Position numbers and translations under genes: made by a program
Shown: in pieces, positions 464 through 53,340 of the stretch
Layout of the letters: the number at the start of each line of letters is the position of its first letter
How positions within the stretch are numbered: the stretch's first letter is position 1
Source: Eledone cirrhosa
Taxonomy: Eukaryota
DNA: 64,000 nucleotides
Assembly: GCA_964016885.1 (NCBI GenBank)
Contig: OZ024742.1
Location: forward strand, 194,060,001-194,124,000
Direction of reading: 5' to 3'
Notes under the pieces: generated by a model
Database searches by the model: none
The model's input: the letters and a program-made list of their open reading frames with translations, nothing else
Told to the model about the DNA's origin: nothing

Positions 464-529
464 TATTTTATCTGACGAAAGTACACCATAATTTTACTTG
501 GTGTCCTTGAAATATTATATAATGAAATA
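464..529 (+). ncRNA. Type I hammerhead ribozyme in a PLE-type 3' end
   Basis: tattttat-CTGACGA-aag(t)acacca/tggtgt(c)ctt-GAAA-tattata-TA-atgaaata; second copy at 18465-18529; followed by AATAAA and (TA)n. Confidence 0.7.
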
Positions 530-1710
530 AATATGGTTTTATAAATATAGTTTCCATTTGTTAATATCGTATATATATATATATATTTTATAGAGGGAGC
601 TTCCAAAAAATTTTACTCTGCCATGTATTGAGTACCTTACTTACTGTGGTTATCCCCGACTCAACCCGGGACCTACGTATATATATATATATATATATAT
701 ATATATATATGCGCGCGCGCGTTGGTGTGTGTGTATTCGTATGTGCATGTGTGTCTATATTAATATAGACCTATACGTGTACACATGTATACGAATTTTA
801 ACCAATTATCACTTTTATAATTAATTATTTATTACCTTCTATTATAATTATGAGTATGCCCTTTCCGTAATCTGAAACTTCTCATAAACCTTTTACTATC
901 TTTTATCCATTTACATTTATATATACCATACTTTTCTTCGTTTTGGAGTCCTTGTGATCTGCAGTCTTTACAACATTGTACATTACGAATCATTATAGGC
1001 TTTAGCAGATTCACTGCCACGCTACACCAGTCTTTGGCCGGGGACCAGCACTAGTATCGCAGGTTGCTTGGTGACGTCAGACCTTATTAAAGACACAAAG
1101 AAATGGTTTTGTGTTGGTGGTGTACGACAAGCTGCGACTGAGAGTATTTAATATCAGTCTACTGCAGGAATGTCTCTCACGGACACTCCGCCTTCCGTGG
1201 TGGCGCCTACAAACTCACAATGCATAGTGTTCTCGAGTGTGGGATATAGGGGACACATGTACAGCGATCGGTTCGATTGACCGACCCGCCCCCCCGTGTC
1301 AATTCTCTATTTATATATTGCTTTAACCTAGAATTTTTTACTAAATCTTTTTTGGTTCTCATACCTAATGCCGTCGCCGAGTGTCTTGCTTCAGGTGATG
1401 TGGTAATCCACGAGTCATGGAAATCATATTGTATTTTTACGTAACATTAAATAAATGCAATGGATCCAGCCTATAATGGATGCTACTCACTACGTTGTGT
1501 TTTTAATCATGGCAACTGGTAATGGGAATGATCTGCTAATGGAAGTGACAAGATCTACACAGTATTTAAAACATCGACATATATATACATATATATATAT
1601 ATATATATATATATATATATATATATAATTTATTCCGGGTTGAATCGGAGGTAACCACAGTAAGTAAGGTACTCAATACATAGCAGAGTATAAATATTTT
1701 AATATAGAAG

Positions 1711-1761
1711 AGCTTCTAGAGGACTAGAACTGTTTCAATCGTGAGAAATCATCAGGAAGCT
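1711..1761 (-). ncRNA. Type I hammerhead ribozyme (left arm of head-to-head pair)
   Basis: Reverse strand: agcttc-CTGATGA-tttctcacgatt-GAAA-cag..ctc-TA-gaagct; same family as 45385-45429. Confidence 0.7.
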
Positions 1762-1805
1762 GAGGAATTCTCATGAATGAAACAGTTCTAGTCCTGTAGA
1801 AGCTC
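1760..1805 (+). ncRNA. Hammerhead ribozyme (right arm; 5' strand of helix I lost at the inversion junction)
   Basis: CTGAGGA-attc tcat gaat-GAAA-cag ttctagtc ctg-TA-gaagctc. Confidence 0.7.
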
Positions 1806-1932
1806 TTATATATATATATATATATATATATATAGTGGTAGAACACTGGAAGATAATATCCGTAGTGGTAGAGCACTCAGTCCATGGGACGAGTCAAGTA
1901 GAAGTGGTTACTCAACAGTTAGTTCACCATAC

Positions 1933-1970
1933 CGAGAACAATTGTTTCACCTTAGCGGATCCTCAGCTAC
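1933..1970 (-). ncRNA. Minimal hammerhead ribozyme, palindromic helix III
   Basis: Reverse strand: ag-CTGAGGA-tcc gctaa ggt-GAAA-CAATTG-TT-ct; helix I weak. Confidence 0.55.
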
Positions 1971-2067
1971 CTGCGGTAGGCCATCGAGCACTCGATGCTC
2001 TTACAGAGCAGAGTATAATATCACATAAGAAACGGAGAATCAGCGGTACGACGAATTAAAATTTATT

Positions 2068-2164
2068 AGACATATTACAATCGTTTCTCTGACGACCAGC
2101 TCGAGGTACTATAGATGCGATGATCGAACCTGACTCTCAAATCGCAAGATCCTCAGATACGTCT
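2068..2164 (-). ncRNA. Hammerhead ribozyme, left arm of inverted repeat 2018-2330
   Basis: Reverse strand: agacgtat-CTGAGGA-tct...aga-GAAA-CGATTG-TA-atatgtct (8-bp helix I). Confidence 0.75.
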
Positions 2165-2185
2165 GGAAACGGCTTCGAAAGATTG

Positions 2186-2282
2186 AGACGTATCTGAGGA
2201 TCTTGCGATTTCATTGTCAGGTTCGATCATCGCATCGATCTTGCCTCGAGCTGGTCGTCAGAGAAACGATTGTAATATGTCT
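2186..2282 (+). ncRNA. Hammerhead ribozyme, right arm of inverted repeat 2018-2330
   Basis: agacgtat-CTGAGGA-tct...aga-GAAA-CGATTG-TA-atatgtct. Confidence 0.75.
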
Positions 2283-2508
2283 AATACATTTGAATTCGTC
2301 GCACCGCTGATTCTCCGTTTCTTATGTCATATATATATATATATATATATATATATATATATATATATAGGTGTGTGTGTAGAAATAAACACAGTAAATT
2401 CCGTGTCTAAAATTATGAGGGTTGAGAATGCCACAAATGTTTTATATATTTAACCTGAAACATACAGTAGGATATAATTCTGTAAGCCATTTCATCAATA
2501 GCCATTTC

Positions 2509-50493: not shown

Positions 50494-50568
50494 ACCTGGA
50501 CAAGCTCGCCAGCATGTTTCGCCACAAGTAATGTGTAGATTCACACCGTGGAGCGCTTATCAACAGGT
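50494..50568 (-). ncRNA. Hammerhead ribozyme with U3-A8 core (left arm of inverted repeat 50380-51062)
   Basis: Reverse strand: acctg-TTGATAA-gc...gc-GAAA-catgct ggcg agcttg-TC-caggt. Confidence 0.75.
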
Positions 50569-50872
50569 GGTCAAAGAATATAATCCACACTTCTAAAAAT
50601 ATATCAGATAACTAGTATATACAGATGGTGGAAAGAGAAAACATGTGACCTATACAGTAAGTGTGAATGGACCAAAAGACCACTAAAATCAGCAGCTGAG
50701 AACCATTCAACTTACGAGGCTCTATTTACATATAGAAATTAATTAGCAGCAAAAATATAAATAAAACAAATGAGTTAAAGACTCACGTTAATCCCCTATA
50801 ATTTCGTGAGCTCAAGGAATCGTATATTAGTTATCTGATATCATTTTAGTAGTGTGATCGTATTTTTGGTCC

Positions 50873-50947
50873 ACCTGTTGATAAGCCGTCAACGGTATGA
50901 ATCTACCCTTTATTTGTGGCAAAACATGCTTTGCAGCATATACAGGT
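50873..50947 (+). ncRNA. Hammerhead ribozyme with U3-A8 core (right arm, G12 mutated)
   Basis: acctg-TTGATAA-gcc...ggc-AAAA-catgct ttgc agcata-TA-caggt. Confidence 0.65.
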
Positions 50948-51219
50948 GTTATAGTTATAAACGGATGGTTTGGATATTTTAATTTATTCTGTTAATTGAT
51001 ATGTATACTCCATTCCATTCGTAGACAATATGGTTTTCACTCTGGTGGTATTCTATCCCCTATGTGTGTCTCTCTGTGTGTGTGTGTATGTGTGTGTGTG
51101 CGTGTGTGTGTGACAGCTCACACGTATGCAGGTTTAGCTGGCCTCCTCCAAGATATATCTCGTTGGGGAAGACTTGGGTAATTTAATGATAGGGACCCCA
51201 GTCCTATCATCGCATTTCT

Positions 51220-51350
51220 ACAGCTGAGTAAACTGGAGCAACGTGAAATAAAGTGTGTTGCTCAAAGGAACAACACATCACCTGGTCCGAGAACTGAACT
51301 CACAACCTTTCGATTGCAAGCCCAATGCTCTAACCACTAAGCCATGCGCC
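51220..51350 (-). mobile_element. CORE-type SINE 5' part
   Basis: Reverse strand ggcgcatggcttagtggttagagc..gtgagttcagttc..tgttcctttgagcaacacactttatttcacgttgctcc. Confidence 0.75.
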
Positions 51351-51517
51351 TTCATCCCTATGATTAAACAAACACCTCTTTGTGGGATTTTCTCTATATA
51401 CTCTCTTATAAACAGCCCGGTATCGATCCTTGAGCTCATTAAATTATAAGGTATTGAGGCTTTATATATATATTTATATATATATATTATATATAAATTG
51501 AGGCTTTATATATATAT

Positions 51518-51666
51518 ATTATTTCTGAAGACGGCATATATATGTGTTTGGTATGTATATTTAATTTTGATAGTTTGTATAATTTTGTATAATTTTGTAC
51601 ATAGATCTGTTGAATATGCATGCCAATTCTAACACATATATATCCTAGAAACGATCGTTAAATAAT
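51518..51666 (+). ncRNA. Hammerhead ribozyme with ~115-nt helix II insertion
   Basis: attattt-CTGAAGA-..atatatatgtgtt/aacacatatatat..-GAAA-CGATCG-TT-aaataat. Confidence 0.75.
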
Positions 51667-52774
51667 GAACTTTTTTTGTTTAATATAAGGAACTATTTCA
51701 TTGTTTTATTCATTATTTTTTTTTATATTTTATCTTGACTCTGTATTCCGTTTATCTTTCACCGAAAGTGATTGTTCATTGCATCTCTTCTTTCCATGAT
51801 ATCCGGATTACATTGAGTTCTTCATACGGATTGGACACTACCGTAAACTCTTGGTAGATTTATCTCTCTCTCTCTATATATATATATATACAGCTAATAT
51901 TCTTTATCAATTTAGAATCTTTTTCTCAAAGGCACATATATATATATACACTTCTTTTAAAAATATACCCATCTTTCTATCTTATTTCAAAGGTTATTAT
52001 ACATTCTATAATACTTGTTACTCATTCTACATCGCTCCTATTTATCACTTCCCTTTCTTCTCTTTTTCTTTTAATGTCTAACCCCTAATCTGTACCTTTT
52101 CTCACTGTTGCCTAACATAGAATCAATTATTACATAATACAATACATTCTTACACTATATCACCTTGTAAAAATCCTTCGTAAACATATATATTTTTTTG
52201 ACGTTAGATTATTCATCCTCAATTCATTATTCTTTTCTCCCTTTCATCTAACTCATTCATGCTCATCTCACAATATATCCTTACTTAAATAACCTGTTAT
52301 TCCTTTTAATAATACATATCAACATTTTCTTTCCATCGCACATATTATTAAACCCTTAAATATTATTCTTAATACATATTAACATTTTCTTTTCATCGCA
52401 CATATTATTAAACCCCTCAATATACAAACCTTAACTTTACATTATTTTTCTCTTCGTTAATTTTCAAATTCTTTTAATTTATACATTATGTTCCAACGGT
52501 TTTCAACCTCTCTATGTAAAACAATATCTCTTTCTCAGTTATAAAAGCTATCTCTCTCTCTCTATCACCCATCTCTCCTCCTATCTCATCCTTCCTCATT
52601 ATACTCCTCCCTCTCCACTTTTTACTCTCATCTCCTCCTCTTTTTCATCCCCCCCCCCTCCTCAAAATAAAATATGTTTCCCAATATCACACATCAATCT
52701 AAAACTACTTCTCATATGTTGATTTAAAACTGAACTATCCACAAGTGTTTTTTAACCTTCATATCATGTCTTCC

Positions 52775-52846
52775 TGTTTTATCTGATGAAAACACAAATA
52801 TTATTGCATGATGATATTTGTTTTTGAAGTGCGCTTTTTAAAATAC
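52775..52846 (+). ncRNA. Decayed hammerhead-like motif at the end of a pyrimidine-rich PLE-type UTR
   Basis: tgttttat-CTGATGA-aaacacaaatatt/gatatttgtttt-GAAG-tgcgct. Confidence 0.4.
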
Positions 52847-53228
52847 ATGGAAGTCTTTTAACCATCTTTTGTTCTTATATATTATGTATACTCCAGTCCT
52901 ACAAACTGTAGAGTGCTTCTTATCCGATATCTGCATTGTTTTATTGTACTACAATAAAACTCACCTCCTACATATATATATATATATATATATATATATA
53001 TATATATATATATATATATATATATATATTAGGTATAGGGTTACCCAAGATGTAGTAATGGTTAATTACTACACTGGATATCGTTGACGTACGGTGAGAG
53101 GCTGGTTACTCTACGAGTTATGGAAGAAGTGTTGAAGAAACTTAGTTCCTGATCCTTCTGTATTCCGGAGTGTATATAAAGAATGAATAATAACAGGTAG
53201 ACATCATAAAAAGGTAATTTATTCCGTG

Positions 53229-53340
53229 TGCTTACAAATGTTTCCACGGTGGTACTACAGCCTAGTTATGCTATTTGCAAATTTATAAGTATTTGCAGAA
53301 CTCAAATATCCAATGCTGTGACCACTGTATCCTCAGAGCA
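53229..53340 (-). ncRNA. Hammerhead ribozyme followed by AATAAA
   Basis: Reverse strand: tgct-CTGAGGA-tacagtgg...ccaccgtg-GAAA-CATTTG-TA-agca. Confidence 0.8.

Follow-up and report, generated by a model that had tools for sequence, protein, structure and literature searches.

A 64,000-nucleotide (nt) stretch of the Eledone cirrhosa genome (assembly GCA_964016885.1, contig OZ024742.1, positions 194,060,001 to 194,124,000 of the forward strand; hereafter, the window) contains numerous short motifs that are, judged by their predicted fold, type I hammerhead ribozymes. These motifs are probably the 3′ ends of (TA)n-flanked insertions that come from Penelope-like elements (PLEs) of the Hydra clade and of the Neptune/Nematis type, and from tandem units of 310–660 bp that lack an open reading frame (ORF) and likely use the Hydra-clade enzyme. 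The evidence that carries this reading was observed directly: the fold, the covariation of its helices, the (TA)n flank, two 3′ ends per family, inverted pairs of one long and one short arm, ORFs upstream of five window families, and seamless ORF-less tandems in two. We regard the population as a real, very large instance of a known system, to which two sequence-level features are added, a tail hairpin and a candidate U6-like promoter.

Hammerhead motifs in the window and across the genome

The window is AT rich and packed with microsatellites, and hammerhead anatomy is visible by eye around many copies of the heptamer CTGANGA, which occurs 52 times compared with ~22.5 times (maximum, 36) in shuffles. 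A strict type I hammerhead descriptor returned a single match. A scored, relaxed descriptor, which tolerates one core change, a mismatch or one extra base at the helix II foot, and a loop II of up to 130 nt, returned 22 matches at a cut-off score of ≥6 (perfect core in 18, one core change in 4), while 20 local dinucleotide shuffles gave a mean of 0.55 and a maximum of 2. Mapping family members onto the window produced 41 rows, four of which (28672, 44716, 45249, and 45623) were dropped because each rested on a single-match family; five other candidates (2589, 17403, 33875, 57461, and 63394) had no family support across the motif. The final tally is 37 motifs in 18 families, made up of the 22 descriptor matches, 8 decayed or broken full-length copies, and 7 half-motifs. 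Of the families, five represent the 3′ ends of coding PLEs, two consist of ORF-less tandem units of 430–530 bp, nine are tied to neither, and two were seen only as halves; the 30 full-coverage motifs divide accordingly into 8 from the five ORF-linked families, 6 from the two tandem families (F8 and F4), and 16 from the nine others. Much unique DNA in the window, including an RTE-type long interspersed nuclear element (LINE) and copies resembling short interspersed nuclear elements (SINEs), holds no hammerhead at all. Rfam reported no hammerhead at gathering score, neither in the window nor in four further loci, and its E-value listing of the window (150 of 224 weak rows seen) was dominated by microsatellite microRNA models.

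A first-pass annotation of the window, made from the letters alone, had described about 35 type I motifs from many unrelated families between 464 and 53340. Type I motifs do lie where it placed them (descriptor spans begin or end exactly at 464, 11395, 41841, 47680, and 53340), and the comparison with dinucleotide-shuffled sequence that it proposed shows a clear excess. The number is right, with 35 of the 37 motifs inside that range, only if dead and half copies are included, since just 22 keep the fold and 18 a perfect core. The families are many but not all unrelated, because most share the tail hairpin described below and several pairs are sister families. Could AT-rich, microsatellite-rich DNA nonetheless have produced the motifs by chance? 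Random occurrence would account for some 22 of the 52 heptamers, and four mapped rows were spurious, but shuffles yield only 0–2 matches in the window and 1, 1, and 5 in 380 kb of genome sample, and the real matches group into multi-copy families with covarying helices. The shuffles, the family clustering, and the covariation in F8 refute this explanation, to which we assign a negligible probability.

The genome sample consisted of 38 10-kb tiles at round coordinates on 8 contigs, the two tiles flanking the window being excluded. It held 63 relaxed matches, of which 48 are solo copies, and 13 tiles were empty. Scaled to the genome size of 2.996 Gb, this gives ~5.0×10^5 relaxed matches (bootstrap, 3.2–6.9×10^5), ~3.8×10^5 of them with a perfect core. 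Fifteen of the 63 also passed the strict rules (~1.2×10^5 genome-wide), the failures being caused by helix II foot mismatches and long loops. The density noted at first pass is genome-wide, and the idea of a local hotspot was dropped: tiles genome-wide average 1.66 matches per 10 kb, and the window, at 3.4, has about twice that (P ~0.02 by tile bootstrap, for a window chosen post hoc). Published counts are 126,247 in axolotl, >6,000 in 16 families in a coral, and ~5,000 in a mussel (PMC7229834), and ~9,000 in Xenopus (PMC4209133). Our estimate equals or exceeds that for axolotl in a genome about one-tenth the size, a rough comparison given that the descriptors differ. For clustering, a larger set of 1.03 Mb, biased by the family searches that collected it, provided 406 matches in 52 clusters, 30 of which have at least two members. 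One satellite tile (L058) carries 191 CTGANGA heptamers in 10 kb with zero descriptor matches.

Ribozyme anatomy and a possible role for cleavage

Across 30 families, the core and the NUH triplet are constant while helix sequences vary and each of the four bases occurs at N7. Among 28 short-helix families, 19 have a perfectly palindromic helix III (44 of 51 inner pairs). In most window motifs, with the exception of F2/F9, the helix III segment pairs with a second copy and forms no hairpin alone, which corresponds to the dimer design described for PLE ribozymes. The helix covariation that the first-pass annotation proposed to look for is present: in F8, two of the six helix II pairs are altered on both sides across three subfamilies, a score reached by none of 500 shuffles (a control inflated by related rows), and concerted changes are also seen in helix I of F4 and helix II of F2/F9, in copies collected without a pairing rule. 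The subfamilies are few, and so are the events.

Cleavage after NUH is predicted from this anatomy. An alternative is that the fold persists for its structure or as a site where protein binds, or cuts only with the help of a protein, with cleavage irrelevant to insertion and the tandems derived from linear read-through RNA that was never cut. Sequence from either side of the cut site is present in the insertions, and in the Poseidon PLE of Anolis catalytic mutants left insertion in vitro unaffected (PMC11167929). Several families also depart from the consensus core. U.U closes the helix II foot in 19 of the 63 random-tile matches, and CCGANGA is found in all 3 copies of G22; U.U at 10.1–11.1 and U4C are, however, known active natural variants (PMC3088659). 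The core of the abundant family F6, which has a stable helix III (window 15927–15971 and 45489–45526; loci L029, L037, L059, and L016), is CAGAAGA in 10 of 10 copies, and this U4A change was not among the variants found in the available part of PMC3088659. Full-length F21 copies have an A at position 8, and 3 of 48 F21 3′ halves are joined to such a 5′ part. Against a fold without a role in cutting stand the constancy of core and NUH across 30 families and the predicted circles of F8 and F4, which fold far better than shuffles (for F4, partly from internal inverted repeats). On balance, we consider a role without cleavage unlikely, if still a serious contender, and continue to favor a cutting ribozyme at the end of a PLE-type insertion.

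Insertion signature and coding Penelope-like elements

Targeting of (TA)n, as first proposed, is well supported: (TA)5 lies within 300 nt downstream in 64 of 73 family matches compared with 27% of random positions (upstream, 29 of 73). Families have a short and a long 3′ end (e.g., 21/89 nt in F3 and 48/139 nt in F1), and inverted full-motif pairs in the window combine one long and one short arm, clearly in six pairs and, after subtraction of a nested insert, in the F9 pair. Together, these ends and arms reproduce the PLE tail pattern, which in vitro corresponds to two start sites of the reverse transcriptase (RT) at a stem-loop (PMC11167929).

Five window families (F2, F18, F13, F9, and F1) are tied to PLE ORFs. 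An ORF lies upstream of the motif in 25 of 39 matches of F2, 16 of 21 of F18, 3 of 5 of F13, and 4 of 8 of F9. For F1, a full Hydra-clade element sits just left of the window (L043, 6915 and 7151 to ~9000) with a 5′ ribozyme, tail, ATG, broken ORF, and a 1.6-kb untranslated region (UTR), and at L103 the tail continues into the next Hydra ORF. The window ORF at 12191–14524 and that of L043 encode an RT followed by a GIY-YIG endonuclease, with a CxCx5C linker, DKT in place of DKG, and no CCHH, as expected for the Hydra clade; this assignment is based on translations and a by-eye comparison with Hydra-1_Obim rather than on a tree. Pseudo-long terminal repeats (pseudo-LTRs) from partial tandems, the ribozyme, and insertion into (TA)n likewise agree with that clade. 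The translated ORFs at 40671–41639 and 45650–47479 have a Cx4CxxC linker and CCHH with a C-terminal GIY-YIG, matching the Cx2-5CxxC linker of Neptune/Nematis, and by these translations they are of Neptune or Nematis type. For the PLE endonuclease region, the best match is a protein of Octopus bimaculoides (56% identity). All PLE ORFs examined have a C-terminal endonuclease and a downstream ribozyme, and no N-terminal-endonuclease (Naiad) ORF was seen among them, although no search was aimed at Naiad; canonical ribozymes are reportedly lacking in Naiads (PMC8557442). Autonomous Neptune/Naiad PLEs had been proposed initially. Autonomous PLEs including the Neptune/Nematis type are indeed present, but the second clade is Hydra, not Naiad.

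ORF-less tandem units

The first-pass annotation also expected many ORF-less parasites. In the window, this could be established for two families, F8 and F4; several others, including the motif at 464, turned out to be coding-PLE 3′ ends with long 3′ UTRs. The F8 unit measures 533 bp and is repeated seamlessly, up to ~3.5 times per array; the family also has inverted arms and two fixed 3′ ends. F4 has a period of ~430 nt (up to 490 nt with an inner microsatellite). Another unit of the same family lies upstream in 32 of 47 F8 matches (at 520–550 nt) and 25 of 32 F4 matches (at 370–440 nt). The longest Met-started frame is 31 codons in F8 and 71 in F4, and GC content is 37% and 31%, respectively. 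The predicted circular folds reach −123.6 kcal/mol for F8 (shuffles, −95.2±4.6) and −166.9 kcal/mol for F4 (shuffles, −102.2±4.8). Both families thus resemble non-LTR retrozymes, being ORF-less tandems with one type I ribozyme per unit, a self-paired predicted circle, and a GC content below 50%. Their flanks are (TA)n on both sides, so that target-site duplications are unreadable. Outside the window, five further families (G21, G24, G27, G29, and G30) repeat at 310–660 nt. Four sequencing runs of unknown kind contain F8 contigs with the head-to-tail joint, which has no bearing on expression.

If every motif were the truncated 3′ end of a coding PLE, no independent ORF-less elements would be needed; the five ORF-linked families among 18, the prevalence of solo copies in the random tiles, and the ragged 5′ ends in most families would fit such a view. 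It does not account for the seamless F8 arrays, for the regular repetition of F4 and the five further families, or for F3, in which no sense-strand parent ORF was found upstream in 10 of 10 extended copies. This explanation is refuted for F8 and F4, and as a general account it is very improbable. F3 itself is not a ribozyme-only element of 75–150 nt, because its long copies share at least 470 nt of upstream DNA. At L037:7760–7945, two F3 ribozymes stand head to tail with a period of only 53 nt.

Candidate promoters

The 11-nt motif ATGCAAATNAG is located 88–100 nt before the ribozyme core in five families (F4, G19, G21, G27/G40, and G28), mostly followed by a TATA box, and at least three of the five (F4, G21, and G27) are ORF-less. 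In three U6 loci of the same genome it occurs at −76 to −78 with TATA at −30, and it is found in none of four U2 upstream regions. The five families may therefore carry a U6-type (type 3 RNA polymerase III [Pol III]) promoter, a candidate by motif and TATA. F3 differs: its long copies have CCAAT, a C-rich box, and TATA 30–33 nt before the first base of helix I. Of the 43 F3 arms outside the biased search, 32 have their 5′ end no more than 6 nt from the core (at −5 or −6 in 12 cases), 11 run on, and the interval from −7 to −13 holds no ends. Such a pile-up fits a putative start site at the first base of the ribozyme, with snap-back of the complementary DNA (cDNA) on helix I as a rival. Copying of a cap G at this end was unsupported (G after the stop in 22 of 22 query-biased arms and 3 of 7 unbiased ones), and snap-back explains it.

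The ORF-less units could instead be PLE pseudo-LTRs that were duplicated in tandem at the DNA level and transcribed by read-through only, their U6-like and TATA motifs being functionless, inherited look-alikes. According to a review, metazoan retrozymes seem to be promoterless (PMC7761336), and Li et al. 2026 propose local satellite-like amplification (10.64898/2026.07.22.740005). The motif-to-TATA spacing is 40–45 nt in the elements versus 46–48 nt in U6, i.e., off by 1–8 nt, and snap-back could yield the F3 pile-up. On the other hand, copies are spread over many contigs with PLE-type ends and inverted arms, and ATGCAAATNAG occurs 20 times in the 380 kb of random tiles compared with 1–6 times in shuffles, 8 of the 20 lying 88–100 nt before a ribozyme core. 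Ribozyme repeats with their own promoters have been cited for newt and schistosome (PMC2220036 and PMC6765202). DNA-level duplication is an improbable explanation, slightly more so than the absence of a role for cleavage, and transcription from a putative promoter of the unit's own is preferred here.

U6 copies lacking the U6 promoter were also seen right behind (TA)n or AT-rich DNA at loci L220, L221, L223, and L224, one of them joined to an inverted F3 tail, and the PLE RT may copy U6 RNA. Tandem arrays of U6 genes (~1.8-kb period) and U2 genes (~2.2-kb period) are located at contig C19 31.78–31.84 Mb and C3 307.35–307.45 Mb, respectively.

A hairpin shared by most tails

Eighteen families had a short/long pair of 3′ ends that could be fixed; 12 further families gave none. 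In 12 of the 18, a 4-nt strand begins 5–9 nt beyond the short 3′ end with its complement further on (ACTC/GAGT, GCTC/GAGC, or GTTC/GAAC; chance, 5.6% per site), one of these calls (F12) being doubtful. The hairpin, whose strands covary, is present in the Hydra-linked F1 and F13, the ORF-less F8 and G24, F21, and, in the published file, the end of the consensus preceding Hydra-1_Obim; neither of the Neptune-type families has it. In F18 and F10, the picked copy lacks it and other copies have it. We infer that it is a putative recognition site of the Hydra RT. As such, it would link the ORF-less families to Hydra PLEs, and most families without a traced parent would be Hydra driven; the ORF-less units would likely borrow the Hydra-clade enzyme.

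Features of the window

Ribozyme-related features are listed by position (+ and −, strand).
464–569 (+): F1 hammerhead (464–529; predicted cut after 521), short 3′ end into (TA)n; 3′ pseudo-LTR of a Hydra-clade PLE.
1628–1809: F3 fold-back insertion with two decayed head-to-head hammerheads, 1755 (−) with tail and 1760 (+) without.
1925–1978 (−): F10 hammerhead; palindromic helix III, weak helix I in this copy.
2068–2282: F16 inverted hammerhead pair, 2068–2164 (−) and 2186–2282 (+); 62-nt helix II insert.
11117–11148: F21 3′ half.
11395–11505 (−): F18 hammerhead, 3′ pseudo-LTR of a Hydra-clade PLE; 82-nt helix II arm, tail reaching 11179.
12191–14524 (−): broken Hydra-clade PLE ORF; RT with DKT, CxCx5C linker, C-terminal GIY-YIG.
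15927–15971 (−): F6 decayed copy.
18465–18529 (+): F1 hammerhead, 5′-truncated copy.
23017–23835 (−): F8 ORF-less 533-bp unit (23142–23674), hammerheads 23599–23679 and 23066–23146, inverted arm 23693–23835.
24077–24129 (−): F4 hammerhead, decayed, short arm of an inverted pair; U6-like motif 24193–24203.
24703–25098 (+): F4 unit; U6-like motif 24703–24713, TATA ~24745, hammerhead 24785–24827 (one core change), long 3′ end 25098.
27390–27465: F21, two 3′ halves, fold-back, without 5′ core.
30340–30562: F16 5′-truncated copy, 30340–30405 (+); G26 half copy, 30522–30562 (−).
39022–39148 (+): G20/G31 hammerhead, 94-nt helix II arm.
40671–41639 (+): Neptune/Nematis-type PLE ORF remnant, 5′ truncated.
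41841–41883 (+): F2 hammerhead ~205 nt past the PLE stop; extra base after A9.
42360–42790: F12 inverted pair, 42360–42417 (−) with tail and 42719–42790 (+) without.
43584–44197: F4 inverted pair, 43584–43626 (−) and 44145–44197 (+, decayed); U6-like motif 44071–44081.
44888–45120: F9 inverted pair, 3′ ends of a second Neptune/Nematis-type PLE (ORF upstream in L034, L050, L171, and L183).
45384–45526: F3 hammerhead, 45384–45430 (+); F6 5′-truncated copy, 45489–45526 (−).
45650–47479 (+): Neptune/Nematis-type PLE ORF, 5′ truncated; RT, Cx4CxxC linker, GIY-YIG with CCHH; inverted tail arm ~45555–45650.
47680–47877 (+): F2 hammerhead, 47680–47724 (CAAA for GAAA in this copy), and short 3′ end.
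48275–48314 (+): F21 3′ half.
49916–50262: F15 inverted pair, 49916–49968 (−, short) and 50087–50113 (+, helix II partly deleted, tail hairpin present).
51517–51667 (+): F13 hammerhead, 114-nt helix II arm; 3′ end of a Hydra-clade PLE (ORF upstream in L044, L046, and L052).
52775–52845 (+): F7 hammerhead, decayed core GAAG; other copies intact.
53229–53340 (−): G25 hammerhead, 85-nt helix II arm.
58401–58480: F21, two 3′ halves, beyond the range first annotated.

A decayed F15-type tail fragment at 14660–14780 (−) lies just 5′ of the Hydra ORF with (CA)n between them and is probably a neighboring remnant. Other neighbors are a broken RTE-type LINE with endonuclease and RT (19045–22349, +), whose RT has an O. 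bimaculoides protein among its many matches; an L1/Tx1-like LINE 3′ end with a zf-RVT domain (28659–29422, +); non-LTR RT-like fragments with no Pfam match (5606–6092, +); and a tRNA-Thr(TGT) gene or pseudogene adjoining a (TA)n tract (38643–38716, −). At 3790–4700, an AT-rich element without a ribozyme core, whose sequence recurs in other loci, is duplicated in inverted and direct orientation, and tandem duplications with periods of 332 and 402 bp occupy 32900–33593 and 60321–61115, the latter holding SINE-like copies.

A proposed route and points that weigh against it

The features could be generated as follows: (i) a PLE endonuclease would nick (TA)n, as in known PLE biology; (ii) the RT may bind the hairpin at the start of the tail and begin on either side of it, giving short and long 3′ ends; (iii) most cDNAs would end early, as is also known for PLEs, leaving ribozyme-only stubs; (iv) ORF-less units may be transcribed from their own putative promoter just 5′ of the ribozyme, U6-like in F4 and its relatives and CCAAT/TATA in F3; and (v) two ribozymes may pair through the palindromic helix III and excise a monomer, which would be circularized and then copied round more than once.

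A number of observations speak against this interpretation. Cleavage, transcription, start sites, and circles are all deduced from sequence. The relaxed descriptor scores helix III pairing, so that the palindrome count is partly selected, and helix III of F2/F9 is not palindromic. Only 3 of 8 monomers give a full three-helix or a helix I+II hammerhead as the lowest-energy fold, and only 1 of 8 has a folding energy clearly below shuffles. Nine window families have no traced parent element. The tail hairpin was first noticed in the same families used to count it, is absent from F4 and G17, and has a pairing probability of at least 0.7 for its 4-bp stem in only 7 of 12 families. The spacing difference from U6 given above belongs here as well. 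From published work, cleavage was dispensable for insertion of the Poseidon PLE in vitro, where no RNA reads ended at the cut site (PMC11167929), and 8 of 9 Xenopus retrozyme dimers failed to cleave (10.64898/2026.07.22.740005).

Comparison with known systems

Earlier publications already report ribozymes at PLE ends and the multiplicity of their families, copies that are solo or inverted, Octopus PLEs of the Hydra clade, and tandem retrozymes with a likely PLE origin. The minimal PLE hammerheads of Cervera & de la Peña 2014 (PMC4209133) are, as here, type I motifs in pseudo-LTRs with many families per genome, a palindromic helix III, predicted dimer action, mostly solo copies or opposite-strand pairs 100–700 bp apart, and an extra base after A9 (here, F2 and F9). 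In contrast to the 2,000–9,000 copies and the G-C at the helix II foot reported there, E. cirrhosa has ~5×10^5 relaxed (~1.2×10^5 strict) matches and commonly U.U or C.A at this position, its helix II arms reach 80–115 nt, and helix III is usually present. The Hydra-clade PLEs of Craig et al. 2021 (PMC8557442), whose supplement lists Hydra-1_Obim of Octopus bimaculoides with a ribozyme, share the C-terminal GIY-YIG, the CxCx5C linker, DKT, (TA)n targets, and the ribozyme; here, however, several families have 3′ UTRs of 0.7–1.6 kb, tails measure 70–190 nt instead of 30–40 nt, and the shared tail hairpin and the ORF-less dependants are not described in the available part of that paper. The Poseidon PLE of Anolis (Frangieh et al. 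2024, PMC11167929) also has two RT start sites bounding the tail, a stem-loop start, and AT-rich targets in vitro, but it is a single element of another clade, with no cross-family hairpin and with a ribozyme overlapping the ORF start.

Animal non-LTR retrozymes (Cervera & de la Peña 2020, PMC7229834; Li et al. 2026, 10.64898/2026.07.22.740005) are likewise AT-rich tandems without an ORF, in which each unit spans a few hundred bp and carries a single type I ribozyme; they, too, are predicted to form self-paired circles and have been proposed to depend on PLEs, the present ones being known from DNA alone. Unlike them, the arrays found here are short (1–3.5 units), dispersed in (TA)n, and bear PLE tails and inverted arms; some have the U6-like promoter, and their ribozymes are of the PLE type rather than the canonical loop-loop type. 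The newt satellite 2 and schistosome SM-alpha repeats (cited in PMC2220036 and PMC6765202) combine a ribozyme with a small nuclear RNA-type Pol II and a Pol III promoter, respectively, whereas the motif here matches the upstream DNA of U6 and not U2 of its own genome, includes TATA, and occurs in PLE-style dispersed insertions. In the literature searched, which did not extend to several supplements and subscription papers, we found no genome-wide ribozyme survey in a cephalopod, no such density, no tail hairpin common to several families, and no units of this kind with a U6-like promoter; the word "ribozyme" is absent from the available main text of a 2026 Octopus vulgaris repeat paper.

Implications

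For repeat annotation, many (TA)n islands and short "unknown" repeats in this genome are PLE products. The literature consulted leaves open what PLE ribozymes do, what moves animal retrozymes, and which promoter drives them, and dozens of natural families in one genome (coding or ORF-less, with or without the tail hairpin, and with differing promoters and core variants) permit direct and cheap tests. It is conceivable, and we propose it only tentatively, that this is the densest known hammerhead population and that it includes self-sufficient RNA parasites assembled from a captured U6-type promoter, a dimer-dependent, circle-making ribozyme, and, in most families, a tail hairpin as the address of the Hydra-clade RT. 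If true, this three-module reading would explain the transcription of animal retrozymes and identify the enzyme behind their movement.

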